Notes: generated by a model not told the origin, from the letters alone. A stretch of 31,141 bases of DNA from Calothrix sp. NIES-2100 (GCA_002368195.1 AP018178.1:5050145-5081285); one strand, 5' to 3'. Shown: positions 8,329-28,253, counted from the first letter of the stretch. Numbers and translations: made by a program.

Positions 8329-8387
8329 TCTAATACCGAGTCCTGATCTCGAATCCGGTTAATCTATACACTATTATTAACAAAAAC

Positions 8388-11300
8388 TCAAGCAGATGTA
8401 TGGTCGGTTTGCAATTTAATTCCCAAAACTTGGGTGTAAGCTCCCCGTGCTTGAGTAACGCCTATTGTGCGTTCGGCTGATTCTATCATCGGTCGGCGCA
8501 AACTCACAACTATAAATTGTGCTTGTTTTGCCTGTTGTTTAATCATTTTAGCTAATCGTTCTACATTTGCCCCGTCCAAAAACATATCGACTTCGTCAAA
8601 GGCGTAGAAGGGAGAGGGGCGATAACGCTGGAGGGAAAAGATAAAGCTTAGGGCTGTGAGGGATTTTTCACCCCCAGACATGGAGGCTAATCTTTGGACT
8701 GGTTTTCCTTTGGGGTGGGCGACTAAGTTTAAGCCGCTGCTAAAGGGATCTTCAGGATCATCTAGTTGCAGGTAGCCGTCGCCTTCGGAAAGGGTGGCGA
8801 AAATTGATTGGAAGTTTTCGTTCACTGCGTCGAAGGCTTCTTTAAAGGCACGCTGACGCAATGTAGTAAAGTTTTCAATCCGCAAAAGTAGTTCTGTACG
8901 TTCTGCTTCTAAGGTTTCGAGCTTTTGTGTCAGTTCTTGCAGGCGGTTTTGGGTGCGTTCGTATTCTTCTAAGGCCAGCATATTTACTGGTTCCATTGCC
9001 TGTAAACGTTTGGCAAGCGATCGCAATTCTTTCTGCAATTCTTCTAAGTCTACTTGATCGGGTACTTCTGGCAGTGGATCGGGTAATTCTGGGGCTAAGG
9101 TTTGCAGTTGTTCTCTGACGTTAACTAATTCTTCTCGCTTTGCTACCAGGGTTTCTTGGAGTTTTTGCAGTTCCCATTCTAGTTGTTGTTGACGCAGTAA
9201 ATGCGATCGCAGTTCTTGTTCGGTGCGATCGCGTTTTTGTTTCTCTTCGCCTAAATTCAGTTCCATCTGGCTCAATCTCGCCTTTATTTCCGTGATTTGG
9301 GCGCTGAGTGCTGAATGTTGGCTATTGATTGTCGTTAATTGATTTTGCTGTGTCTCTTGCTCCTGATGGTACTGGGTAATTCTTTCCTCAGCTTCTTGGA
9401 TTTTTTCTTGTAAGCGTTGCTGTTGATTTTCCAGATTTCTTAATCTTTGTTCCGCTTCCCGTAAAGAAGTTTCTCTTTGTTGTAATTGTTGCTCTTGGGT
9501 TTTAATGGTGGCTTGGATTTGTTGCCATTCACTAGGGGTTTGGGAGGCTTCTAACTCGGCTAAAGTATGTCGCAATTGTTGCAACTGATTTTCTTGACCT
9601 GGTAATTCCCGATCCAAAATCTCCAACCGGGATTGAGAAGTGGCGAACTTTTCACTATTTTGCCCTAATTGCGATCGCGTATTTTCTAACTGCGTCGTCA
9701 AGGTTTTAATTTCTTTTTGCAACTGTTCTAATTGCAGCTGTTGTTCTCGCCTTGCTTGACGGGCTTCTGTAACTTGCTGCGTCAAGGTTTTGGTTTTGGC
9801 TGCGAGAGTATTAATAGCTTCACCACACCGTTCTAAAACTCTCTCAATTTCCCCTAAGCGTCGGCGTAAAGCGGCGACTTCTTCCGGTTCTGCTGTTTCG
9901 CTGTTTCCAAAGCGCAAGGATGAACGCTGGTTGTTACTACCGCCAGTCATCGCCCCGCTAGTTTCCAACAATTCCCCGTCTAGGGTGACGATACGGTATA
10001 AGCCGAGGTTTTTCCGCGCCTGTTCTAGGGTGGAAAAGACGACGGTGTTACCAAAAACATAACTAAAGACATCTTGATAACGGCGATCGCACTCAACTAA
10101 GTTCACCGCGTAGTTCACAAAACCACTGGCTAAACGTAGGGTAGCATCTTGGGTAAATCTGGGAGGGTTAATTTTATTTAAGGGTAAAAAGGTGGCTCTA
10201 CCGGCGCGTTTCTGTTTCAACAGTTCAATTCCCGCAGCGGCGATTCCGTCATCTTCCACCACTATATGTCCTAAACGCCCACCGGCGGCAGTTTCCAAAG
10301 CTAGTTGAAACCGGGGTTCGACTCTGCCTAACTGTACCACTAAACCACAAAGTCCCGGCATTCCCGATTGCAAAATAACTTTACTGGCTTGGGTTCCTTG
10401 AATTTCTTGCTGTGCTTGCGCCTGTGCTTCTAGTTTATCTAACTGGCGTTGTTTTTCCCGCTGTTCTTGCAGTAAGCGCTTCTGGGTATCTTGTTGAAGT
10501 TGCAGTTCTTGTTCTGTGGCTGCGAGATTTTGCGCTAAATTTTGGATGGGTTCGCTAGCGGCGTTAAATTCTGTTTCTAGGCGACTACAATCAGCTTGTT
10601 TTGTGGCTAATTCTGGTTCTAAACTAGCAACAAGCTGGGTTTGTTCTTGAATTTGCTGCTGTAGCTGATCGTTCCGTTCTCTTAGCTGCGCTTGTTCGGT
10701 GCGTTGGGGTTCGAGAGTTTGCAACAGCGTTTCAATTTGTCGGTTTAACGCCGTTTGTTGCTGTACCCAAGCTTCCGAAGCCGAAGCAATTTCCGCCGCT
10801 GCTTGGCGAGAAGTTTCTAAAGCTTGTTGCGTCTCATCTCGTTGCTGCTGACAGTAAACGATTGATTGCTTTTCTACAACCTGAGTTTGAGCAATTTGTT
10901 CTAGGGAACGTTGATGTTGTTGAATTTCTTCCTGACTTTGGGTTTGGCGTTTCGTCGTTTCTTGAATTGCGGTTTCTAATTCGCTGCGCTGACGCTGGAG
11001 TTGTTTGTGTTCTGCTTCTTGGGTGGCGAGGGTAGATTGTACAGCTAATAGTTCCTCTTCCCCCAAAGCTTTTACATGGGCATTGAGTTGATCTAATTCA
11101 ACAGTGGTTTGCTCAATTGTAGTATTCAGCGTGGTCAATTCAGTAGAAAGTTCTTGAGATTTGCGATCGCCATTTTGAATTTGGTTAGCTAATTTTTCTT
11201 GCTGTGCTTGGAGGGAACGCCAAGATAAAACTGCTTCCCAGGATTGTTTAGAAAGATATTCCGTGCGGAGTTTTTGATATTTTTCCGCTTTGGCGCGGTC

Positions 11301-13805: not shown

Positions 13806-16040
13806 ATGGTATCTACTTCTACACCGTTCTCGGATATTAAAAACCATTGGGCACGCTTATTTATTGAAGCTTTATCAGGGTGTCGCGTTTTAAATGGGTA
13901 TCCAAACGGAACTTTTCGCCCAGATAACTCAGTAACTCGTGCGGAATTTGCTGCCATCATTGGCGCAGTCTTTACAGTACCGCCAAAACGGCAATATGTC
14001 GCTTTTACTGATGTCCCTACTAACCATTGGGCTTTTAGTGCTATACAAAAATCTTATGAAACAGGATTTATTAGTGGCTATCCCAATCGCACTTTCCTTC
14101 CTAATAATAGAATTTCCCGGGGCGATGTTTTTGTTGCCATAGTCAACGGCTTGGATATTGCTACTAAAATCAAACCTGACTTGGTAAATAAACTGCCGCA
14201 ATTATATCAAGATGCAACTGCGATCGCCGCCTATGCCAAAAATCAAGTAGCCATTGCTACGAGTACCGGGTTAGTAGCTAGCTATCCAAATATCAAATTT
14301 CTCAACCCCAATATCGCCGCCACTCGTGCAGATGTGGCAGTAATAGTTTATCAAGCTTTAGTCTATCTGGGGCGAGTAGACAAAATTACCTCAGCTTACT
14401 TAGTAATTCCACCCACGCCCACGCCCACACCAACGCCCACACCAACACCAAGCACCACGCCAACGCCCACACCCACGCCAACGCCAATACCCATTCCCAC
14501 ACCCACGCCAACGCCAATACCAACACCCACGCCAACGCCAATACCCATTCCCATACCTACGCCAACGCCAACCCCGACACCCACGCCAACGCCAATACCC
14601 ATTCCCATACCTACGCCAACGCCAACCCCGACACCTACCCCAGTACCATCAAATACAATCAGGGTAAATCATCAACGAGAGTTTCGCGGCGCTTGGGTAG
14701 CGTCAGTATGGAATAGTGATTGGCCTTCTAAAGCTGGACTACCTGTAGCGCAACAAAAATCAGAATTACTGGCGATTATCACCAAATTACAGCAGCTCAA
14801 TTTTAATGCGCTGATTTTGCAGGTGCGACCAGAAGGGGATGCGTTGTATGCTTCATCTTTAGAACCGTGGAGTGCTTGGTTGACAGGAACCCAGGGGAAA
14901 GCACCAGATCCATTTTATGACCCCTTAGAGTATGCGATCGCAGAATGCCACAAACGTAATATAGAACTTCATGCTTGGTTCAATCCCTATCGCGCTAAGA
15001 CTTCGATTCAGCAAGGGTCGAATGTCATTCCCCACATAGCTGTAACTAATCCCCAAGTTGTTTATAAATGGGGTAATCAGTTGTGGATGGACCCAGGATT
15101 AGAAATTGTTCAAGATAGGGCTTATAACGTAATTCTCGATGTTGTCCGCCGTTATGACATCGATGGCGTTCACTTAGATGATTATTTTTATCCCTACCCC
15201 ATCACAGGTCAAAGTTTCCCCGATAGTAAAACCTACGCAACGTATAAAGAAGCCGGTGGCGGACTCAGCTTGGCTGACTGGCGCAGAGAAAACGTCAATC
15301 TGATGGTACTGCGTCTGGCTGAGGGAATTAAAGCCGCCAAGACCCATGTTAAATTTGGCATCAGTCCCTTCGGTATTTACAGACCCGGACAACCGCCAGG
15401 AATTACCGGCTTAGATGCCTATGATGTCCTCTATGCCGACTCGAAAAAATGGCTAGAACAAGGTTGGATTGATTACATCGCCCCTCAACTCTACTGGCGT
15501 ACCGACCAAACACAACAAAGTTATCCTGCCTTACTCAAATGGTGGACACAGGTAAACACTAAGCAAAAACACGTTTACGCTGGTAACAATTTAACAGAAC
15601 CAAGTAACAAGAGTCGGGAGAGTGAAGAGATTGAAAAGCAGGTAATAATTAGCCGTAGCCAAACTGGACAGTTTTCATTAGGGAACATCTTCTTTAATGT
15701 GGGCGTTTTAATGGAAAACAGTCAAGGCATTGCGGATAAATTCCAAAGTCTGCTTTATAAAAAGCCTGCCTTACCGCCAATTTTGCCTTGGCATGATACC
15801 ACACCACCAGCACCCCCCACCGCCTTGCAATATGTTAACGGTAAACTCAATTGGCAACCTGGTGATAATCAACCAGTTCGTTCTTGGGCGCTTTATCGAC
15901 AAGTTGGGGATAATTGGGAAATTCAGCGACTTTTATCGGCTGGGACAAACTTTGCCACTGTGGGGCCAGGTATCTATGCAGTTTCCGCAGTTAATAGATT
16001 AGGGAGTGAGAGTTTAGGAGTGGTGATTACTGTTAGTTGA
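13806..16040 (+). CDS. S-layer-homology (SLH) domain protein: N-terminal SLH repeats, a long Pro-Thr linker, and a C-terminal GHL10/DUF187 (YngK-like) glycoside-hydrolase-like domain
   Basis: SLH motifs (F.D....HWA...I......G...GYP.G.F.P....TRAE) occur three times. The (TP/IP)n linker lies at about aa 200-280. The C-terminal [13 protein letters not shown]...[17 protein letters not shown] is the DUF187 signature. Confidence 0.8.
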
Positions 16041-16196
16041 TGGTTGACAGTTGTATTTACAAATCGCAAATGTAGGGGCACAACGGCAGTTCATACGTGT
16101 CAACTTAACGTGAAACTCTCTGTGTGACAAAGTTTTGCCCTCATCCCCTAACCCCTTCTCCCTCAGGAGAAGGGGAATTCCCTCACCCCCACCCTT

Positions 16197-16859
16197 CTAG
16201 GGTGAAAGCATAACCTTGTCATTATACGGGTTTGAATTTTTGAATGCTTCTGCCTTTTCGTAAGCACGAATTGTTGCCGGACGTGCCTTAATTGTCTCAA
16301 ACCAACGCTTTAAATTCGGAAAATCTTCTAAGTTTTGACTTTGACGTTTATAAGGCACAATCCAGGGATAAGCAGCAATATCAGCAATGGAATAATCGCC
16401 AGCTACAAATTCTCTATCTGCCAATCTTTTATCTAACACTCCATACAAGCGTCCTGTTTCTTTGACGTAGCGGTTGATAGCATAGTCAATTTTTTCTGGT
16501 GCGTATTCGCTAAAGTGGTGGTTCTGACCAGCCATTGGCCCTAAACCTGCCATTTGCCAGAATAGCCATTGTAAAACCTCTAGGCGCGCATCTTGAGGAA
16601 TTAACTTCCCAGTTTTTTCTGCTAAATACAGCAGAATAGCACCAGATTCAAAAATAGCAATTGGCTCACCTCCATTTACAGGTTCATGGTCAACAATTGC
16701 CGGAATACGATTGTTAGGAGAAACCTTGAGAAAATCCGGATTGAATTGCTCACCAGCCATAATATTTACTGGAATAATATTGTAAAGAAGTCTAACTTCT
16801 TCCAAGAAAATTGTGATTTTATTACCGTTTGGTGTTGGCCAATAATAAAGGTCAATCAT
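16197..16859 (-). CDS. Nu-class glutathione S-transferase (YfcG/YghU-like), copy 1
   Basis: MIDLYYWPTPNGNKITIFLEE...ISPNNRIPAIVDHEP..GGEPIAIFESGAILLYLAEKTGK resembles E. coli YfcG closely. Confidence 0.9.
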   Translation of the reverse strand: MIDLYYWPTPNGNKITIFLEEVRLLYNIIPVNIMAGEQFNPDFLKVSPNNRIPAIVDHEPVNGGEPIAIFESGAILLYLAEKTGKLIPQDARLEVLQWLFWQMAGLGPMAGQNHHFSEYAPEKIDYAINRYVKETGRLYGVLDKRLADREFVAGDYSIADIAAYPWIVPYKRQSQNLEDFPNLKRWFETIKARPATIRAYEKAEAFKNSNPYNDKVMLSP

Positions 16860-17392
16860 GGGTTATTCTCCCGAATTTTTGTGATTGTTTTGAGAACTTA
16901 GACTTCTTTTGCTGCTAGTAGTCCACCACAATAATTTCTTAGTCAGCGCTTCAGTCCTTATTTCCAGGACACTGCTGACTAGGTATCTGTAAATAATTAA
17001 TGACATAAACCACTAGCCAATGTTGTTGATGAATGCGATGATTTAGCGATCGCACCCCAAACTCTATGGTGAACTGGGAAAATCGGTGTCGGATATTTTT
17101 CTGGCAATTTTGATTATTCTAGGAGTCACACACCCACTTATGATGCGCTTTTCTACTAGTTGCATGGTTGTACTGTAGATATCGACTCTTGGTCATATAT
17201 TAAACACCAGCACTTGTAAGTACATGAAACCTTAACATTACCGCAAAATTTTGCTGATATTTGCGTATATATTAACTATTTTAGTATTTTACCGTATTTT
17301 CACTCAGGCGATCGCTTCGCTTTCGTCAAAAGTCAAAATTAATAAATATTTACTTTTGACTTTTGACTGAAGCGAAGGGTTTAAGAGCTAGC

Positions 17393-17812
17393 CGCCATGA
17401 TAAGGTACAAACTTTGCCCCTGTGGGGACAGGAACCTATGCTGTATCCGCAGTTAACAGGTTAGCAAGTGAGAGTTTATACCGTTTAACTTTAATTATGA
17501 TACAAATACATTGGTAGGGAACAATGCCCATTGGTGTCAACTTAACCTGAAACCCGCTTGGTGAAAAGGTTTCGCCCTCACCCCCAGCCCCTCTCCCCTG
17601 GGGAGAGGGGAGCTAGAAATCCAATTCCCCAACTCCGGTGGGGAGAAGGGGTTAGGGGATGAGGGCGTGGGAATTTGTACAACGCTTGCCCGATATAGCT
17701 TTCGGCTTAAGTTGACACGTATGGGCAATGCCGTGCCCCCGACGCGAAATCTATATGTATCAGCGTTTTAGTGAAATGGTATTAGGAGTGGTGATTACAG
17801 TCAGTTAATGAT
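17393..17812. pseudogene. Decayed duplicate of the 3' end of the SLH/GHL10 gene, interrupted by a MITE
   Basis: 17393-17478 resembles 15946-16031 (...CAAACTTTGCC.CTGTGGGG.CAGG.A.CTATGC.GT.TCCGCAGTTAA.AG.TTAG..AGTGAGAGTTTA). 17785-17812 resembles 16032-16045 and onward (GGAGTGGTGATTAC.G). Confidence 0.6.
17479..17784. mobile_element. MITE insertion of about 306 bp with a TGTCAACTTAA-type TIR core at 17526-17726, inside the duplicated gene fragment
   Basis: Comparison with the intact parental 3' end places the insertion between ...AGTGAGAGTTTA and GGAGTGGTGATTA. TTA is present at both junctions and may be a TSD. The TIRs are GCCCATTGGTGTCAACTTAA / TTAAGTTGACACGTATGGGC. Confidence 0.6.
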
Positions 17813-18164
17813 TGATGTCGCTTGTACATCTTCGTGTGATTGTATTGATAACACGGGGATTGTTTGACATTGCAGCCATAGGTGTTAAGTATGAACGATG
17901 TCCAGCGGTGCAATCGCACTATTAGGCATCTTAATTTACAGCGAAACTAGGGGTAGTTCAGAGTCGTAGATATAAACGATACACCGTTTTCCTCCCAGGA
18001 CGCTGCATTCAAAAACCACTCAGACTATCAAAACATAATGGGAGCGTGAGAACCCCTGCCTTTACATGAGGGGATGAAACGCGACTCAACAGGATTTATC
18101 CTGTTTGCTTTATTAATAGAGAAAGGCTGCCGCTGAAACTAGTCAAGCGGCAATTTGGATTTAC

Positions 18165-18863
18165 CTAACGTTGAATAGTCTGCGCAGATTGATTAAATAA
18201 TAAATCCCGTGACTTTTCAATATCTAATGCCTGATTTTTAAACTCTTCTGCCTTTTCGTAAGCGCGAATTGTTGCCGGACGTGCCTTAATTGCCTCAAAC
18301 CAACGCTTTAAATTCGGAAAATCTTCTAAGTTTTGGCTTTGGCGTTCATAAGGCACAATCCAGGGATAAGCAGCAATATCAGCAATGGAATAATCGCCAG
18401 CTACAAATTCTCTATCTGCCAATCTTTTGTCTAACACTGCATACAAGCGTCCTGTTTCTTTGACGTAGCGGTTGATAGCATAGTCAATTTTTTCTGGTGC
18501 GTATTGGCTAAAGTGGTGGTTCTGTCCCGCCATTGGCCCTAAACCTCCCATTTGCCAAAATAACCATTGTAAAACTTCAACACGTTTGGGCAAATCTTGG
18601 GGAATTAACTTCCCAGTTTTTTCTGCTAAATACAGCAGAATTGCACCCGATTCAAAAACAGAAATCGGCGCACCGCCATTTGCAGGTTCATTGTCAACAA
18701 TTGCCGGGATACGATTGTTAGGTGAAATATTGAGAAACTCTGGCTTAAATTGGTCGCCAGCACCAATATTTACCGGAATAATATTGTAAGGAAGTCCAAC
18801 TTCTTCCAAGAAAATTGTAATTTTATGACCGTTGGGAGTTGTCCAATAATAAAGGTCAATCAT
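18165..18863 (-). CDS. Nu-class glutathione S-transferase (YfcG-like), copy 2 and paralog of 16197-16859
   Basis: The start is taken at the internal ATG (MIDLYYWTTPNGH...), which has a GGAGA RBS, rather than at the ORF-track start 10 codons upstream. Roughly 95% nt identity to copy 1 over the 3' half. Confidence 0.85.
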   Translation of the reverse strand: MIDLYYWTTPNGHKITIFLEEVGLPYNIIPVNIGAGDQFKPEFLNISPNNRIPAIVDNEPANGGAPISVFESGAILLYLAEKTGKLIPQDLPKRVEVLQWLFWQMGGLGPMAGQNHHFSQYAPEKIDYAINRYVKETGRLYAVLDKRLADREFVAGDYSIADIAAYPWIVPYERQSQNLEDFPNLKRWFEAIKARPATIRAYEKAEEFKNQALDIEKSRDLLFNQSAQTIQR

Positions 18864-18894
18864 GGTGATTTCTCCTGATTTGTCAATAGTCAAT

Positions 18895-18958
18895 AGTCAG
18901 TTGTCAGTTGTAAAAAAGGCGAACAGTCAACCGTCAACCGTCAACCGTCAACAGTCCC
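18895..18958. repeat. STRR heptamer block (CAATAGT / CAGTTGT / CAACCGT units)
   Basis: Visible 7-nt periodicity. Confidence 0.8.
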
Positions 18959-18966
18959 CTCATCTT

Positions 18967-19656
18967 TTAAAAACGCTCAACCCAAGGGCGCAATTCTACT
19001 TCCCAAGTCCAAGCGCTGCGGGGTTGATTTAAAATGCTGAGATAAGTTTGAGCGATCGCATCCGGATCGAGAGTACTATCAGGGTTATCGGCTGGATCTT
19101 GGCGTTGGGCGGAACGAATAGCACCATCAATTACAAAATGCGCTACATGAATATTCTTAGGTGCTAATTCCCTCGCAATGCTTTGAGCCAAACCCCTGAG
19201 GGCAAATTTACCCATTGCAAACGGTGCAGATTGCGGATAACCCTTAACACTAGCTGAGGCTCCGGTAAAAAATATCGCCCCACCTCCCTGCTGTAACATC
19301 CTTTTAGCGGCAGCCTGGGCAACCAAAAAGCCACCATAGGCAGTGATTTCTAGGGTTTTGGCAACTTCGCTGGGGTCTAGTTCAATTAGCGGCCCCCGGA
19401 CTCGAAAACTGGGATTGTAAACAACAACTGTCGGGTTACCAAGTTTATTTTCGACATCGATAAATAACTGGTTTACCTCCTCTGGTTTTGCCGCATCAGC
19501 AGCGAAGCTAACCGCACCGATTTCACTACTAAGCTGAGTCAGTTTCTCAATGCTACGAGATGCTAAGGCTATTTTCAGTCCTTCCTTGGCAAATAAGCGA
19601 GCGATAGAAGCACTTAATCCATTACCTGCTCCAACTATCAAAGCTGTTTTTGGCAT
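18967..19656 (-). CDS. Short-chain dehydrogenase/reductase (SDR)
   Basis: N-terminal MPKTALIVGAGNGLSASIARLFAKEG Rossmann motif. Length is 229 aa. Confidence 0.85.
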   Translation of the reverse strand: MPKTALIVGAGNGLSASIARLFAKEGLKIALASRSIEKLTQLSSEIGAVSFAADAAKPEEVNQLFIDVENKLGNPTVVVYNPSFRVRGPLIELDPSEVAKTLEITAYGGFLVAQAAAKRMLQQGGGAIFFTGASASVKGYPQSAPFAMGKFALRGLAQSIARELAPKNIHVAHFVIDGAIRSAQRQDPADNPDSTLDPDAIAQTYLSILNQPRSAWTWEVELRPWVERF

Positions 19657-19679
19657 AGGTGCAATTGTCCTTTTGCTGA

Positions 19680-20978
19680 CTAGGGATTAATTGTGGCTGA
19701 AGATAAAAGTGAATTACTCTTAGTAGGATTTTGACCAATTCGCAGTACTAAGACTGCTGCTATTAAGCACAAAACACCTGACAAAATAAATGCTTGAACA
19801 TAAGTACCTTGCCAAGTTCTCAGCGCTCCGGCTCCGAAGGCGGCTGTAGCTGCACCGAGTTGATGTCCGGCGACAATCCAGCCGAACATAACGCCGACAT
19901 TCTCTTTGCCGAAGACGTTGGCTACAAGGCGAACTGTCGGCGGTACAGTAGCAATCCAGTCGAGTCCGTAAAAGACGGCAAAGATTGAGAGTCCGTAGAA
20001 TGAGAAGTGAAAACTGAAGGGTAGGAAAATTAGGGATAAACCCCGCAATCCGTAGTACCAGCAGAGTAAGTAGCGATTGTTCCACCTATCAGACAGCCAA
20101 CCGGAGAGAGTTGTCCCAAAAAAATCAAAGATGCCCATAATCGCTAACAGTCCCGCAGCCTTAACTTCAGGGATGCCATGATCAATGCAGGCGGGAATTA
20201 GATGAGTGCCGATAAGTCCGTTAGTACTCGCACCACAGATAAAAAAACTACTAAATAACAACCAAAAGTCACGAGATTTGCAGCCCTGCCAGAGTTTGCT
20301 GAGTGTGGAAGTGATGGAATTTGCCTTTGGCGGTATTAATTCCACAGTTTCGCTATTATCTCCAAAAGCTCGCAAGCCAACTTCCACTGGCCGATCGCGC
20401 ATGAATAAGGCGATCGCCGGAATCACTAAAACTGCAACGCCAGCCAGGGCTAAAGTAGCTGTTCGCCATCCAAATCTCTCCACTATCGACGCCAACATGG
20501 GCAGAAATACTAATTGCCCGGTAGCTGTACTGGCGGTAAGCATCCCCAGAACCAAACCCCGCCGCTCTACAAACCAGCGATTGACAACAACCGCACCTAA
20601 TACTAAGGCGATAACTCCGCTACCACTACCGACAATGATTCCCCACAGCAATACTAACTGCCAGGAAGCTGACATGAAAGTGGTCAAGCCAACGCCAATA
20701 GCGATGAAAGCCAATGCGAATACCATTGTCCGGCGAATACCGATGCGCTCCATGACAGTGGCGGCAAAAGGGCCGATCAATCCATACAGTACTAAGTTGA
20801 TGGAGATTGCTAAGGATATAGTAGCTCTACTCCAGCCAAACTCCTGCTCCAAAGGCACGATGAGAACTCCTGGTGCAGAACGAATCCCGGCGGCTACTAA
20901 TAGAGCTAAAAATGTTAAACCCGCTACGAGCCAGCCATAATGAAGCGAACGACGTGCTAAAAACGAGGCTAAGGACAT
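19680..20978 (-). CDS. MFS transporter
   Basis: 432 aa with about 12 hydrophobic segments and an MFS-like D-R-x-G-R-R region (MERIGIRRT). The stop is 23 nt upstream of the SDR start. Confidence 0.8.
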   Translation of the reverse strand: MSLASFLARRSLHYGWLVAGLTFLALLVAAGIRSAPGVLIVPLEQEFGWSRATISLAISINLVLYGLIGPFAATVMERIGIRRTMVFALAFIAIGVGLTTFMSASWQLVLLWGIIVGSGSGVIALVLGAVVVNRWFVERRGLVLGMLTASTATGQLVFLPMLASIVERFGWRTATLALAGVAVLVIPAIALFMRDRPVEVGLRAFGDNSETVELIPPKANSITSTLSKLWQGCKSRDFWLLFSSFFICGASTNGLIGTHLIPACIDHGIPEVKAAGLLAIMGIFDFFGTTLSGWLSDRWNNRYLLCWYYGLRGLSLIFLPFSFHFSFYGLSIFAVFYGLDWIATVPPTVRLVANVFGKENVGVMFGWIVAGHQLGAATAAFGAGALRTWQGTYVQAFILSGVLCLIAAVLVLRIGQNPTKSNSLLSSATINP

Positions 20979-21080
20979 GGTTCCAAGGGATTTGGGATAG
21001 GGAAGAGATAAACACAGATATTCATCTGTATTTATCTGTGGCCTAATTTCTACAATTCTGATAGCTGAGACAACAAAAAA

Positions 21081-21746
21081 TTACCCCTGATAAGGGTTAC
21101 CAATTCTATCTACAGAAACGTTAGCAGACAAAGGCAAGCGACCGGGATTGAGGCGGGGTTCTGCGGGATAACCAACAGGTACTAAAACTGCGATCGCTAA
21201 ATCTGGATCGTCTGCTGCACCAATCACAGCCTTCACTTGCTCTTCAATCCAACCATTCATAAAGCAGGTGGATAAACCTAAACTTTCGGCTGCAAGTACT
21301 AAATGAGTAGCCGCAATGATTGCATCTTTGATCCCATATTCGCGCCGCTTGTCTGCTAAACCAGCTTGAAATTGGGGTATAGCATTTTTAAAGTAGTTGA
21401 CTGTACCTTCATTCCATGCCCCAGTTTGCAGTGCTTGCTCATAAACCGGTGTTAAGTCTTTTTCTCCCGCATAGGGATCGGCTGCAAATACAAATGTCAC
21501 AGGTGCTTGGACAATTTGTTGTTGATTCCAAGATGCTGCTGACAATGCTGCTTTTTGCGCTTCATCTTGCACCAGGATAATTTGCCAACCTTGCATATTA
21601 AAACTGCTAGGTGCGGCTACGGTTAACTCTACTAGTTGCTTGAGTATTTCCTCTGGTATAGGGTCTGATTTGAAAGTTTTAATGGAACGACGCTGAAGAA
21701 TAGCACTGGGTACATCTAAGACTTGAGTTTGTGCGATCGCACTCAT
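21081..21746 (-). CDS. Nitroreductase-family protein
   Basis: LQRRSIKTFKSDPIP...matches the nitroreductase N-terminal signature. Length is 221 aa. Confidence 0.85.
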   Translation of the reverse strand: MSAIAQTQVLDVPSAILQRRSIKTFKSDPIPEEILKQLVELTVAAPSSFNMQGWQIILVQDEAQKAALSAASWNQQQIVQAPVTFVFAADPYAGEKDLTPVYEQALQTGAWNEGTVNYFKNAIPQFQAGLADKRREYGIKDAIIAATHLVLAAESLGLSTCFMNGWIEEQVKAVIGAADDPDLAIAVLVPVGYPAEPRLNPGRLPLSANVSVDRIGNPYQG

Positions 21747-21851
21747 GAGATTCTCCTGATTGTTGAACTTCCTACGCTGTAATAGCGCTTTTCATTATCA
21801 ATCTAAATGCTTTTTTGGTGTAAAAGGTTGCCACCCAACACGCCAGAGTAA

Positions 21852-22964
21852 TTATAGACTGACTACTTGTTCCCCAGCAGCCGACCAAAACGGATAGTCT
21901 GTATATCCCTGTTCACCACCACCATAGAAGCTTTCTTGATTTGGCTGATTCAACGGTGCATTTAAAGCCAAGCGTCGGGGTAAATCTGGATTTGCGATAA
22001 ATAGAGTGCCAAAGGCGACTAAATCGGCTTCTTTGTTAGCTAAAACAGCATTGCCCGTTTCATTTGTATAGCCACCACAAACAATCAGTGTACCTGTATA
22101 CCTTTCCCGTAAATAATCGGTTGGTACTGCCGTCCCACCATGCCTGATATCTGCGTCTGTGGACTCAATAATATGCAGATAAGCTAAATTAAATTGATTC
22201 AGTACTTGCGCAGTGTAACCAAAGGTTTCTAAAGGATTAGAGTCACGCATATCGTTAAATGTCCCGCTAGGCGAAAGCCTAACTCCTACCCGTTTACTAT
22301 CCCAAACGCTAGTAACTGCTTCTACAATGTCTAATAAAAATCGCACACGGTTCTCAATACTACCGCCATACTTATCTGTCCGTTGATTCGTACCATCCCG
22401 GAGAAACTGGTCAATTAAATAACCATTAGCTCCGTGAATTTCTATGCCATCAAACCCAGCCGCTAGAGCATTGACTGCCCCTTGACGGTATTGTTCCACA
22501 ATATCTGGAATCTCGGAAGTTTCCAAAGCGCGGGGAGTAACATAAGGTTTGAATCCCTCGAATGTGAATGCTTGACCTTGCGGTGTAATTGCCGAAGGTG
22601 CTACAGGTAAAGCCCCATCTGGTAGCAAGTCAGGGTGAGAAATTCTGCCTACGTGCCACAGTTGCAGAAATATTTTTCCTCCCTGCTGATGCACAGCATC
22701 GGTTACCAACTTCCAACCCGCCACCTGTTCTGGTGAATGAATACCTGGTGTATTCGGATACCCCAGTCCTTGAGGAGAAACTTGAGTTGCTTCTGCAATA
22801 ATTAGTCCAGCCGAAGCGCGTTGCTCATAGTATGTAGCATTGAGCGAATTGGGTACATTTCCCTGACCTGCTCTTTGCCTAGTTAGGGGAGCCATAACTA
22901 TCCGATTGGGTAGTTCTAAATCACCTAATTGGTAAGGAGAGAACAAGTTGATATTAGTATTCAT
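21852..22964 (-). CDS. Old Yellow Enzyme family NADH:flavin oxidoreductase (NemA/OYE-like alkene reductase)
   Basis: LGDLELPNRIVMAPLTR.RA...EATQVSPQG.GYP.TPGI.S.EQ...WK.V.DAVH..GG.IFLQLWH.GR, with a C-terminal GYTDYP region. Length is 370 aa. Confidence 0.9.
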   Translation of the reverse strand: MNTNINLFSPYQLGDLELPNRIVMAPLTRQRAGQGNVPNSLNATYYEQRASAGLIIAEATQVSPQGLGYPNTPGIHSPEQVAGWKLVTDAVHQQGGKIFLQLWHVGRISHPDLLPDGALPVAPSAITPQGQAFTFEGFKPYVTPRALETSEIPDIVEQYRQGAVNALAAGFDGIEIHGANGYLIDQFLRDGTNQRTDKYGGSIENRVRFLLDIVEAVTSVWDSKRVGVRLSPSGTFNDMRDSNPLETFGYTAQVLNQFNLAYLHIIESTDADIRHGGTAVPTDYLRERYTGTLIVCGGYTNETGNAVLANKEADLVAFGTLFIANPDLPRRLALNAPLNQPNQESFYGGGEQGYTDYPFWSAAGEQVVSL

Positions 22965-22987
22965 TGGTCACATCTCCAAATAAGTAA

Positions 22988-23095
22988 TCGACCGAATTAT
23001 GCCACCATCTAGTCGCAGAGGGACAAGGGGGACAAGGGGAAAAAGGGGAAAAGGGGAAATGACCATTGACAAATGACCAATGCCCACTGACTATT
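22988..23095. repeat. STRR heptamer block (GGGGACAA/GGGGAAAA units, then ATGACCA/TTGACAA units)
   Basis: Visible periodicity. Lies between the OYE and thioredoxin genes. Confidence 0.8.
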
Positions 23096-23157
23096 CAAAA
23101 AAAACAAAGATTCCCCTATTTTGAGTCTGTCAATCAGCTGACTCTAGGCAGTTAACT

Positions 23158-23484
23158 TTAAGAAATATGCTGTGCTAAAGTCTTAGCTAAAGTGGTTTTG
23201 GGCACGGCACCCACGACCGTATCGACTTGTCGGCCTCCCTTAAATACCATTAACGTGGGAATGCTCCGAATACCATAATGGCTGGCGACGGTGGGATTTT
23301 GATCTGTGTTCAGTTTCACTACTTTCACCTGGCCGTCGTATTCGGTAGCTACCTCATCGACAACCGGAGCCACCATTCTGCAAGGGCCACACCAAGGTGC
23401 CCAAAAGTCAACTAGGACTGGAACTTGGCTTTCAAGGACTTCTTGCTTAAATGTAGCTTCTGTGACATTTGTAACGGATGACAT
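23158..23484 (-). CDS. trx: Thioredoxin
   Basis: WCGPC active site. 108 aa, typical of TrxA-like proteins. An AGGAGG RBS sits 6 nt upstream of the ATG on the minus strand. Confidence 0.9.
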
Positions 23485-23508
23485 AATCGTCCTCCTGATT
23501 TAATTCTA

Positions 23509-23529
23509 TTATTCGATAATATCGAATAA
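23509..23529. promoter_or_regulatory. Perfect 10-1-10 palindrome TTATTCGATA-A-TATCGAATAA, centred between the divergent trx and ArsR-family genes. Candidate operator.
   Basis: I checked reverse-complement identity position by position. It lies 25 nt upstream of the trx ATG (minus strand) and 36 nt upstream of the regulator ATG. Confidence 0.55.
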
Positions 23530-23564
23530 GTAAAATATATGCCATTTTATGAGATAGTGCAACT

Positions 23565-23915
23565 ATGAGATTTTTGTATCATCCAGACCGAAAAGATATA
23601 TCGTTAGCGGGAGTGCTATATGCCTTAGGCGATCCGGTAAGGCTAGAAATTGTGCGGCTTTTAGCAACGAAGGGAGAGCAATGCTGTGCGGGGTTTGATT
23701 TTGCGATCGCCAAATCAACCATGTCCAATCATTTTAAGATTTTACGGGAGTCAGGCGTAGTACTGACTCATAAAGAAGGAACACAGCACATCAACCAATT
23801 GCGGCGAGAAGATTTAGAAGCCCTATTCCCTGGATTATTAGATGCAGTCTTACAATCAGCCCAACCATTAAATATTTGTGTTTCGGCTGATAAGCAAACA
23901 GCTTCAAAAGTTTAG
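23565..23915 (+). CDS. ArsR/SmtB-family HTH transcriptional regulator with a Cys-Cys pair in the predicted alpha3 helix
   Basis: LGDPVRLEIVRLLA..GEQCCAGF......STMSNHFKILRESGVV aligns with the ArsR alpha1-alpha4 layout. The CC sits where ArsR carries its C-x-C sensing site. Confidence 0.75.
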   Translation: MRFLYHPDRKDISLAGVLYALGDPVRLEIVRLLATKGEQCCAGFDFAIAKSTMSNHFKILRESGVVLTHKEGTQHINQLRREDLEALFPGLLDAVLQSAQPLNICVSADKQTASKV

Positions 23916-23924
23916 GGCATTGGG

Positions 23925-23968
23925 CATTGGGGACAACTGACAACTGACAACTGACTATTAACCAATTT
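23925..23968. repeat. STRR heptamer block (GGGCATT, then GACAACT units)
   Basis: Visible periodicity. Confidence 0.75.
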
Positions 23969-24784: not shown

Positions 24785-24895
24785 ATCTTAATGGGATGGG
24801 GGGCAGGGGAAAAGGGGAAAGGGGACAAGGACGCAGAGGAGGAATAACTATTGCCCAATGCCTAATGACAATTGAAAGATTTTCTAAAACTGTGA
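24785..24895. repeat. STRR heptamer block (GGGGAAA/GGGGACA units, then CCAATGC-like units)
   Basis: Visible periodicity. Confidence 0.75.
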
Positions 24896-25691
24896 TCTAG
24901 AATACCGACTATTAAGAGAACGGGTGATATTGTTTAGTTGTGTGTGAGGAGCAAGTTAAAACGAAAAACACCCGGGGTGGAAACACGGCAACACTCCCAG
25001 GTGTTTTTTGTTTCATATACACAAAGAATTGCTTTTAGTAAGAATAGTCAAGGCGATCGCTACTTTAGATTTCCCCTAAGAAAAAGCTTGAAATAGTTCT
25101 AAGATCTTTACCTTGAGTGCTGCGATGCCTACCCTTCTCCTGACGGAGACGCTACGCGAACGGGAACGACTTTGTCGAACGGGAACGTCAAAGACGAACG
25201 CCTTTTGTAAAGTCTCACCTGGAATAGGCGGGAAGGGTGGAAGCCCCGTAACTTCAGCTACCTATTCCCCTCACGGGGATGGAAAGGAAATTTTTTCTGG
25301 GAAATGGTGTCTGAAATCATTGCAAAATTTATCTTCTGCACCACCCTTTGTTGCTGCACTGCGATCGCCATCAGGAAGAACAGTTTTACTGAGTGCTTCT
25401 AGTAACAATTTGTAGCGCAACTCTGCTACTCTTTCGCGGCGCTGGACTGCTTTTAATCTTTTTTGAGGCTGACTTTTATTATTAGTCTTAACAGTTATTA
25501 TTCGAGTTTACCGAACCACAGGATTCGAGTAAACCGTAATATAACTTCCTGCGTAATTTAGTGCGGTAATCATGAAATATTCGGTGATAACAACCGAATT
25601 TACACAACTTTATATCATGGTTAATATAAGAATCAAAGCAACAAATTACATCTTGAATCAAGTAGATAAACAGTTAGAGGGTAAACATAAT

Positions 25692-26300: not shown

Positions 26301-27200
26301 TTAAGACGCAGCGGCGGTCAATTCCCGAATTACATTGAGAAATTCCTGTAAGACAGGTGAAGAATCTTCTTGTCGCCACACAACTACAATCTCTCGTGAG
26401 AAATTTGCACCTTTGATTGGTCGATAAACAACGCCTGTGCGTTGCAGGTTTTGCACGTTGCTAGGTAAAAGTGCTACTCCCATACCACCAGCAACTAAGC
26501 TAAGAACGGTGATCATCCAAGTAGCTTCTTGGACTACTTTAGGGAAAAAACCAGCTTGCTGACAGAGGTTAATAATCTCGGTGTAGGAAGGAACGATTTC
26601 TGGTGAGGGTAAAACAAAAGGTTCATCAGCCATTGCCGCGAGGGGAATTTCTGTTAGTTTGGTGAGGGGATGGGTAGCTGGTAATGCAATCACCAAAGAC
26701 TCGCGTGCAATTGGCAGATAACTCAAGTTAGGATTTTGTTGATGGGAATGGGGTAAGCGCTCAAATCCGACATCTAGACGGCGATTGAGCAGTTCTTGAA
26801 TTTGTTCGGAAGCTGTGAGTTCGCGCAATACTAGTTTGACATGAGGAAAGCGATCGCGGAATGTCCGCAACATTTCCGGTAAAACACTATTAGCAATAGA
26901 ACTATTAGTACCCACAATCATCTGTCCAATCTCGCCGCGACTAGCCCTTTGAGTTTGGAAAATGGCGCGTTCGAGTTGATTTAAAACTAATCTGGCTTCT
27001 TCTAAAAATACTTCTCCCGCAGATGTAAGTTGCAGTGGGCGCTTTTTGCGGTCAAATAATTTTACACCAATTTCCGCTTCGAGGGCGCTAATTTGTTGGC
27101 TGAGGGGAGGTTGCGCAATATGCAGACGTTGGGCTGCGTAGCTAAAGTTCTTTTCTTCAGCCACAGCAATAAAGTACCGCAAATGTCGAAGTTCCATCAC
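26301..27200 (-). CDS. LysR-family transcriptional regulator
   Basis: The N-terminal HTH MELRHLRYFIAVAEEKNFSYAAQRLHIAQPPLSQQISALE is canonical LysR. Length is 299 aa. It is transcribed divergently from 27363-28253. Confidence 0.9.
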   Translation of the reverse strand: MMELRHLRYFIAVAEEKNFSYAAQRLHIAQPPLSQQISALEAEIGVKLFDRKKRPLQLTSAGEVFLEEARLVLNQLERAIFQTQRASRGEIGQMIVGTNSSIANSVLPEMLRTFRDRFPHVKLVLRELTASEQIQELLNRRLDVGFERLPHSHQQNPNLSYLPIARESLVIALPATHPLTKLTEIPLAAMADEPFVLPSPEIVPSYTEIINLCQQAGFFPKVVQEATWMITVLSLVAGGMGVALLPSNVQNLQRTGVVYRPIKGANFSREIVVVWRQEDSSPVLQEFLNVIRELTAAAS

Positions 27201-27362: not shown

Positions 27363-28253
27363 ATGAGCAAAATCAAGCGTGTTGTGATTGTTGGTGGAAC
27401 TCACGGAAATGAAATTACAGGAATTTATCTAGTCAAAAAATTTGAGCGATCGCCTGATTTAATTCAGCGCTCAAGTTTTGAGAGTGTGACGCTGATTGGT
27501 AATCCGCAAGCCTGTGCGATCGGTAAAAGATATGTTGATACAGACTTAAATCGCTGTTTTCTGAGCCAAGATTTAGAAAACCCTAGTTTGACTAGTTATG
27601 AAGCACAACAAGCAAAAATAATTCATCAAACCTTTGGCTTTCAAGGTAGCCAGCCAGCAGATTTTGTCATTGATTTACATAGTTCTACAGCCAATATGGG
27701 GCTGTCTATTATTTTAGGTAATGAGAATTTATTAAATATTAGCTTAGCAGCTTATCTTACATCAATAAATCCCAAAGTTAAGATACTTTACTCCACAAGC
27801 CAACATAAAGTCAGACCTCACTTAGATTCAATTTGCGAATTTGGCTGTACCCTGGAAGTTGGTGCAGTTGCGCAAAATGTTTTAGATGCTGCCTTATTTC
27901 AGGAAACTGAAGCAATTATTCAGGAAATTTTAGATTATTTAGAAGCCTATAATCAGGGAACACCACCACTGACAAAAGATACCATCAACGTTTATCACAG
28001 CATTGAAACAATCGACTATCCCAGAAATGAGTTAGGAGAAATTCAAGCGATGATTCATCCTCAATTGCAATTTAAGGATTATCAACCACTTCATCCGGGA
28101 GAGCCGATGTTTTTAACTTTTGAGGGTAAAGAAATTGTTTATGATGGTGAATTGACTGTGTATCCTGTCTTCATCAACGAAGCAGCTTATTACGAAAAAG
28201 CTATTGCAATGTGTATAACGCAATTAAGCCATAGGAAGGTCAATAGTCAATAG
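27363..28253 (+). CDS. Succinylglutamate desuccinylase / aspartoacylase (AstE/AspA) family zinc hydrolase
   Basis: N-terminal VVIVGGTHGNEITG (GGxHGNE zinc-binding motif). Length is 296 aa. Confidence 0.75.
   Translation: MSKIKRVVIVGGTHGNEITGIYLVKKFERSPDLIQRSSFESVTLIGNPQACAIGKRYVDTDLNRCFLSQDLENPSLTSYEAQQAKIIHQTFGFQGSQPADFVIDLHSSTANMGLSIILGNENLLNISLAAYLTSINPKVKILYSTSQHKVRPHLDSICEFGCTLEVGAVAQNVLDAALFQETEAIIQEILDYLEAYNQGTPPLTKDTINVYHSIETIDYPRNELGEIQAMIHPQLQFKDYQPLHPGEPMFLTFEGKEIVYDGELTVYPVFINEAAYYEKAIAMCITQLSHRKVNSQ

Follow-up and report, generated by a model that had tools for sequence, protein, structure and literature searches.

Positions 18165-23915 of a 31,141-bp stretch of the Calothrix sp. 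NIES-2100 genome (GCA_002368195.1, AP018178.1:5050145-5081285; the whole stretch is referred to here as the window) contain a small ArsR/SmtB-family regulator gene transcribed divergently from a thioredoxin gene (trx), which is followed on its own strand by genes for an old yellow enzyme (OYE), a nitroreductase (NR), a major facilitator superfamily (MFS) transporter, a short-chain dehydrogenase/reductase (SDR) and a glutathione transferase (GST). Sequence comparison identifies this locus, with little room for doubt, as orthologous to the RexT-TrxA2 redox switch described in Nostoc/Anabaena PCC 7120. RexT-TrxA2 is already known: it has been published, its structures have been solved and its spread among the Nostocales has been surveyed. 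The original prediction, made from the sequence, recognised no characterised cyanobacterial regulator of this architecture; this was wrong, as RexT was described in 2012 and its structures followed in 2022 (PMC8960804). Its central inference, that the regulator is an ArsR-family repressor of the divergent trx with a vicinal Cys pair on alpha3 as its thiol switch, is borne out by analogy with RexT, to which the protein is about 90% identical and for which the mechanism is established.

The regulator as a RexT orthologue

The rexT orthologue (23565-23915, plus strand) encodes a protein of 116 residues with the HTH_20 and HTH_5 (ArsR) helix-turn-helix domains, as found by Pfam and NCBIfam searches. 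Cys40 and Cys41 form a vicinal pair inside GEQCCAGF, and HMMER alignments place EQCCAGF onto the ELCVCD segment of ArsR/CadC-type proteins. A search of solved structures with the regulator returns one overwhelming match, PDB 7TXM/7TXN/7TXO (E = 4e-60), aligned over residues 1-106; 95 of the 106 aligned positions are identical to 7TXM. These entries are the crystal structures of RexT from Nostoc sp. PCC 7120 (Li et al. 2022; PMC8960804). The window regulator keeps all eight residues named for RexT (R26, C40, C41, K50, R61, T68, N77 and C105). Six of them, C40, C41, R26, K50, R61 and N77, are invariant across 80 distinct orthologues, while T68 is replaced by Ser in two of the 80 and C105 is retained in only 29, which fits the published view of C105 as dispensable.

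RexT (alr1867) was described in 2012 by Ehira and Ohmori, according to the account given in PMC8960804, as a redox-sensing repressor of thioredoxin A2 (all1866). Reduced RexT binds the rexT-trxA2 intergenic DNA, with Arg26 and Lys50 as DNA contacts, and is released upon treatment with H2O2 (PMC8960804). The switch is a vicinal Cys40-Cys41 disulfide on alpha3; Arg61, Thr68 and Asn77 activate Cys41, the peroxidatic residue, and TrxA2 re-reduces the protein (PMC8960804). RexT is further described as having a channel dedicated to H2O2 and a tetrad that activates it, and in vivo induction through RexT requires H2O2 above 1 mM (PMC8960804). If the Calothrix protein follows the steps demonstrated for the PCC 7120 protein, a reduced RexT dimer on the rexT-trxA2 palindrome would keep trxA2 repressed. 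H2O2 would then oxidise Cys41 with the aid of the same Arg, Thr and Asn side chains, and Cys40 would resolve the sulfenic acid to form a strained vicinal disulfide that distorts alpha3, weakens the alpha3-wing contacts and takes RexT off the DNA. Transcription of trxA2 would follow, and TrxA2 would reduce RexT, closing a negative feedback loop.

Li et al. use an adjacent divergent thioredoxin gene as the genomic signature of the RexT family and report the CC motif beside trx in 83 of 84 Nostocales sequences (PMC8960804). Our scan of one genome per species gave 80 related loci from Nostocales, with RexT 80-97% identical, and in all but one the divergent trx lies at a near-constant distance of about 80 bp. 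A protein homology search for distant RexT/CyeR relatives returned, among the 120 matches listed, only Nostocales proteins of at least 77% identity. Two Nostoc-type loci carry other taxon labels: one with rexT-trx-OYE-NR and an 82% identical RexT (L056, CAZZZY010000011.1) is in a metagenome-assembled genome labelled 'uncultured Acetobacteraceae bacterium', and a second cluster contig (L024, JBBSOP010000011.1) is in one labelled 'Chroococcales'. Both labels are probably binning or labelling errors.

Compared with RexT of PCC 7120, the window regulator is of the same length class and has the same Cys40-Cys41 pair, DNA-binding residues and H2O2-activating residues, whereas its C-terminal tail diverges after residue 102. 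At the level of the locus, the divergent thioredoxin over an 80-bp spacer, the core operator and the OYE and NR genes after trx are shared; the MFS, SDR and duplicated GST genes of the window stand where PCC 7120 has all1863 and all1862.

Other thiol-based regulators resemble RexT in part. NemR-nemA of Escherichia coli, YodB/CatR of Bacillus subtilis and QsrR of Staphylococcus aureus are Cys-based repressors beside electrophile-detoxifying flavin reductases; they belong to the TetR or MarR/DUF24 families and sense by S-alkylation or intersubunit disulfides, so that the likeness to the window locus, on which the original prediction was modelled, is one of gene context. CyeR of Corynebacterium glutamicum, which controls the OYE gene cye1, falls in the same similarity cluster as RexT, has a Cys at the Cys41 equivalent and is inactivated by oxidants, but it differs in having the second Cys of its pair seven residues off, in acting on the OYE gene directly and not on a thioredoxin gene, and in reportedly working as a monomer (PMC8960804). 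We rejected an assignment of the window regulator to the CyeR type, as its Cys residues are adjacent and the OYE gene is one gene removed, with trx between and no box upstream of OYE. BigR, SqrR, HlyU and YgaV share with RexT the use of the ArsR/SmtB fold as a dithiol switch rather than as a metal sensor (PMC8960804), but they respond to persulfides and reactive sulfur species through a Cys pair that links alpha2 to alpha5; the window regulator scores only 25.8 bits with the BigR model, for which the cut-off is 155. OxyR, a LysR-type regulator of proteobacteria, likewise relies on Thr and Arg to activate its peroxidatic Cys, switches through a disulfide and is reduced by the thiol system that it induces, but differs in its unrelated fold, its disulfide between distant Cys residues, its large conformational change, an approximately 20-fold faster reaction with H2O2 and its usual role as an activator (PMC8960804).

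A conventional ArsR/SmtB metal or arsenite sensor, with the Cys pair as ligands, would account for the family helix-turn-helix domain and for the alignment of the pair with the ELCVCD region of CadC/ArsR-type proteins, and a preprint reports that All1864 and All1865, the NR and OYE of PCC 7120, increase under Cd stress. This reading is nevertheless highly improbable. The regulator scores below the cut-off of every metalloregulator model in NCBIfam, and its sequence has no CXC or CXCXXC motif, no N-terminal Cys, no DXHX10HXXE motif and no visible His/acidic alpha5 site. Arsenite sensing of the ArsR type was rejected on similar grounds, as the protein has CC only, the test model NF007528 gives 29 bits with a cut-off of 97, and there are no ars genes in the window; metal-efflux genes are likewise absent from the surroundings of the regulator in the window. 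In published electrophoretic mobility shift assays (EMSA), moreover, As(III), Cd2+ and Zn2+ leave DNA binding by the 90%-identical PCC 7120 RexT unchanged. Together, the sequence and these EMSA data largely refute metal or arsenite sensing.

Operator and promoter layout

The 80-bp region between trxA2 and rexT (23485-23564) contains the intergenic palindrome of the original prediction, here resolved as a perfect 10-1-10 palindrome, TTATTCGATAATATCGAATAA (23509-23529), the putative core of the RexT operator. It occurs once in the window, with 0.00 chance matches expected even when three mismatches are allowed, and lies within the PCC 7120 sequence used in the published RexT binding assays. The published operator is ATTCG-N15-CGAAT (PMC8960804). 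In the PCC 7120 probe sequences, as in the close relative L065, this motif encloses a tighter palindrome, ATTCG-N7-CGAAT. The window has the nested palindrome in perfect form (23511-23527, inside TTATTCGATAATATCGAATAA) but lacks the literal N15 motif, because the outer arm, CGAAT in PCC 7120, reads AGAAT here. The related loci show the same pattern: TTCG-N7-CGAA is present in 79 of 79 and ATTCG-N7-CGAAT in 60, whereas ATTCG-N15-CGAAT is found in only 10. The outer arm forms a third, distal half-site (23503-23507; ATTCT on the plus strand, AGAAT in the trx orientation) in which ATTC is invariant and the G occurs in only about 12 of the 79 loci, AGAAT being the usual reading. Apart from the literal N15 operator, which most orthologues also lack, the window locus has every sequence-level feature by which RexT membership is judged.

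In the N7 palindrome, 12 bp separate the centres of the two half-sites, roughly one turn of the helix. In the 12-2-12 operators of ArsR/SmtB proteins, a half-site spacing of about 12 bp corresponds to the span of a single winged-helix dimer. Because this spacing fits one such dimer, the inner palindrome would be the primary site; the RexT dimer most likely sits on the inner ATTCG-N7-CGAAT, with the distal ATTC serving at most as an auxiliary half-site. Going by the counts in the related loci, the conserved operator seems to be TTCG-N7-CGAA and not the published N15 motif, which is a small new point. The EMSA and anisotropy probes themselves (PMC8960804, Supplementary Table 1, in text form) have 16 nt between the outer ATTCG and CGAAT, where the paper states N15 and L065 has 15 nt; the two probes also differ from each other at one base, and a typing or text-conversion slip may be involved.

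Adjoining the operator is an invariant block, TAAAATATAT / TAAAATATA (23531-23540), that probably contains back-to-back -10 elements, TAAAAT for rexT on the plus strand and TATATT for trxA2 on the minus strand. On this reading, the operator would coincide with the start site of trxA2 or lie immediately downstream of it, and would also cover the rexT -35 region. Such an arrangement would imply autorepression, so that RexT probably represses rexT in addition to trxA2.

Genes of the trx strand and their conservation

The genes proposed for the minus-strand run are present at the positions and with the domains originally assigned, according to the ORF listing and the Pfam and NCBIfam searches. The first, the trxA2 orthologue (23158-23484, minus strand), encodes an m-type thioredoxin with a WCGPC active site (TIGR01068, 137.7 bits, cut-off 96.8), the N-terminus of which matches, when compared by eye, the PCC 7120 trxA2 start within the EMSA probe. 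Its PCC 7120 counterpart is the characterised RexT target and supplies the reductant that re-activates RexT (PMC8960804). A spacer of 193 bp (22965-23157, minus strand), which repeat analysis shows to be mostly short tandem repeats of 7-9 bp, separates trxA2 from the gene for an OYE-family ene-reductase (21852-22964, minus strand; PF00724, E = 1.7e-85), the orthologue of All1865, also known as NostocER1. The OYE protein matches PDB 6UFF, the Nostoc PCC 7120 ene-reductase (E = 6e-205, 684 bits), and 9QGB, 'All1865 protein' (E about 1e-198, 663 bits). It is NemA-like, at 390 bits with a cut-off of 403, and NostocER1 has been assayed on maleimide. The nitroreductase-family flavoprotein that follows (21081-21746, minus strand; Pfam/NCBIfam) occupies the position of All1864 in PCC 7120, where all1864 is assigned to PF00881 and all1865 to PF00724; its best solved relative is 1NOX.

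Further downstream is the MFS transporter gene (19680-20978, minus strand). The original prediction regarded this transporter as an efflux protein, but its product is closest to lactate and oxalate-formate (monocarboxylate) transporters and not to a recognised drug-efflux family; the oxalate-formate model NF049980 gives 147 bits, below its cut-off. A classical SDR oxidoreductase gene (18967-19656, minus strand; Pfam/NCBIfam) begins 23 bp after the MFS gene and has a terminator-like hairpin at its 3' side (18949-18922). The run ends with a gene for a YfcG-like (Nu-class) glutathione transferase/disulfide reductase (18165-18893, minus strand; Pfam/NCBIfam), for which the true start is probably the ATG at 18863. 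Two GST genes exist, as predicted, but the second (16197-16859, minus strand) lies outside the range given for the run and is a copy from a local duplication, with repeats 96% and 87% identical. Both proteins resemble YfcG-type disulfide reductases dependent on glutathione, and both, used as queries, match one and the same gene in other loci, where a single copy is found. The duplication is segmental and spans about 2 kb (15942-16877 and 17404-18881), with the GST genes 87-96% identical at the DNA level. Behind each GST lies a duplicate of the 3'-terminal 75 nt of an SLH/GHL10 gene (13806-16040), together with the sequence downstream of that gene; the copy at 17404-17598 is a gene fragment of SLH/GHL10.

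The run is loosely packed, with spacers of 193, 105, 102, 23 and 73 bp and heptamer repeats filling several of them. Repeats in tandem, with units of 7-9 bp, occur in the spacers at 18880-18956, 23020-23082, 23915-23955 and 24805-24830, and the units around these genes include AACCGTC, GGGGAAAA, AAATGAC, GGGCATT and GACAACT. Since other genera carry different repeat units in the homologous spacers, these spacers appear to turn over quickly.

Gene presence was counted in those 64 related loci that have 9 kb or more of flanking sequence: trx is found in 63, NR in 56, OYE in 51, GST in 42, SDR in 36 and MFS in 28. Whichever of these genes a locus has, they invariably share the trx strand and keep one order; membership varies, with 14 different gene combinations. 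The opposite flank of rexT is unconserved, and the creatininase gene located there is found in only eight loci. Because order and strand are kept on the trx side while the opposite rexT flank varies, the trx-side linkage looks selected rather than merely inherited. About two-thirds of the related loci have an extra SDR gene of 264 residues between trx and OYE (for example, L022 8581-9375 and L005 ~8380-9170). This gene is absent from the window, where the gap consists of the 193 bp of tandem repeats. The trx-OYE-NR triad is also present in PCC 7120 and is followed there by unrelated genes; after all1864 come a phosphoenolpyruvate mutase-like gene and an M23 peptidase gene (all1863 and all1862).

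RexT is not, as had been supposed, the only regulator in the neighbourhood: a LysR-type regulator gene (26301-27200, minus strand) lies 2.4 kb away, divergent from an AstE/AspA-family gene (succinylglutamate desuccinylase/aspartoacylase; 27363-28253, plus strand). Between the creatininase-family gene and a small heat-shock gene there is a Cyano-1 RNA motif (Rfam RF01701; 24938-25012, plus strand; 52.9 bits, gathering score 41).

Possible RexT control beyond trxA2

A search for the palindrome upstream of the other genes of the run had been suggested with the original prediction. Degenerate patterns found no RexT box upstream of OYE, NR, MFS, SDR or GST in the window, and a position weight matrix (PWM) found none at these genes in the related loci. 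Over 1.47 Mb (the window and 81 locus sequences, both strands), the PWM, built from the operators, identified boxes only upstream of rexT. A weak match in the window, TTATTCGAGTTTACCGAACCA (25498-25518; score 18.7 of a maximum of 35.9), lies upstream of the small heat-shock gene. It is followed 23 bp further on by a near-repeat, ATTCGAGTAAACCG (the two together spanning 25498-25539). The heat-shock gene is of the Hsp20 type and is carried by none of the related loci; both sequences precede its likely start (25692) by about 170-190 bp. A metagenome scan for ATTCGATWWTATCGAAT was rejected as a source of further regulon members: three of the 120 contigs are rexT-trx loci, and the other 117 are without a RexT homologue, several of them from unrelated samples such as human gut, and are most simply chance matches.

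The spacer between trx and OYE was also considered as the site of a separate promoter. Its minus strand in the window has no promoter-like or terminator-like consensus match, and its predicted fold is not unusual (z-score 0.39). Across the related loci, there is no conserved block in this spacer beyond the ribosome-binding site, and the spacers of different genera do not align. Only four of 77 distinct sequences have a terminator-like hairpin after trx; after trx, OYE, NR or MFS such hairpins occur in less than 8% of distinct sequences, and after SDR in 19 of 37. These consensus scans are crude and capture cyanobacterial signals poorly. With no second RexT box and no conserved promoter or terminator in the trx-OYE spacer, RexT could control the downstream genes only via read-through from the trxA2 promoter. 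The chances that OYE and NR are co-transcribed in this way, at least in part, are about even, judging from the sequence. The MFS-SDR pair and GST, on the other hand, are probably lineage-variable accessory genes transcribed on their own, and RexT control of MFS, SDR and GST is unlikely.

From these observations we tentatively propose, as a possible though doubtful reading, that RexT-trxA2 heads a modular operon for reductive detoxification in the Nostocales, comprising trxA2, an optional SDR, All1865 and All1864 and served by one operator and read-through; that the dithiol also senses electrophiles such as maleimides, quinones and enals from lipid peroxidation, and not only millimolar H2O2; and that the true operator is the inner 12-bp palindrome. 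A preprint describes all1866-all1865-all1864 as a tricistronic operon. Several points weigh against read-through. The operon statement in the preprint appears to be an in silico prediction. Unconserved promoters could lie concealed in the spacers of 100-190 bp, and the negative results for terminators and promoters are weak, coming as they do from simple scans. In about two-thirds of the relatives another SDR gene intervenes between trx and OYE. As to the RexT switch itself, the mechanism assumed for the Calothrix regulator is carried over from its 90%-identical PCC 7120 orthologue, and, with the outer arm of the published N15 operator degenerate in the window, details of binding may differ.

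It is also plausible, if a little short of an even chance, that RexT controls only trxA2 and itself, and that OYE, NR, MFS, SDR and GST are separate units with poorly conserved promoters, their proximity being due to the clustering of redox and detoxification genes and to genome kinship. The sole RexT target named in the RexT literature found is trxA2, any regulon data of the 2012 original aside, and PMC8960804 does not discuss the OYE and NR neighbours of rexT-trxA2. The restriction of the operator to the rexT-trxA2 region, the repeat-filled spacers and the 14 gene combinations are all consistent with so narrow a role. However, order and strand on the trx side are kept across many genera while the opposite rexT flank is not, no conserved promoter or terminator is found between trx and OYE, and in the preprint all1866-all1864 form a single operon that responds jointly to Cd, all of which argue against separate units. 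At the other extreme, as in the full original prediction, RexT could be a general sensor of thiol-reactive and electrophile stress (quinones, N-ethylmaleimide, diamide and nitroaromatics), with the entire run, trx through GST, as its detoxification regulon. The neighbours are plausible electrophile detoxifiers, including NostocER1 with its activity assayed on maleimide, the nitroreductase and the YfcG-like GSTs. In addition, an OYE gene is the target of CyeR, which clusters with RexT by sequence, and the need for H2O2 above 1 mM for in vivo induction leaves room for another natural signal (PMC8960804). Such a regulon is nonetheless improbable: there is no operator besides that of rexT-trx, only 28, 36 and 42 of the 64 loci have MFS, SDR and GST, respectively, other genes take their place after all1864 in PCC 7120, a terminator-like hairpin follows the SDR gene, and the MFS protein falls outside the recognised efflux types. 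Moreover, the published account gives RexT a dedicated channel for H2O2 as well as the activating tetrad, and electrophiles (N-ethylmaleimide, quinones and diamide) are not mentioned there as RexT signals (PMC8960804).

The definition of the operator as ATTCG-N7-CGAAT, to which the comparative data point, bears on the modelling of the RexT-DNA complex and on the use of this promoter as an engineering part. The presence of OYE and NR after a RexT-controlled trx, with neither an operator nor a conserved promoter of their own, suggests a role for these enzymes in oxidative or electrophile stress. As All1865/NostocER1 is widely used as a biocatalyst, its physiological role would be of interest to those who work on cyanobacterial redox biology.

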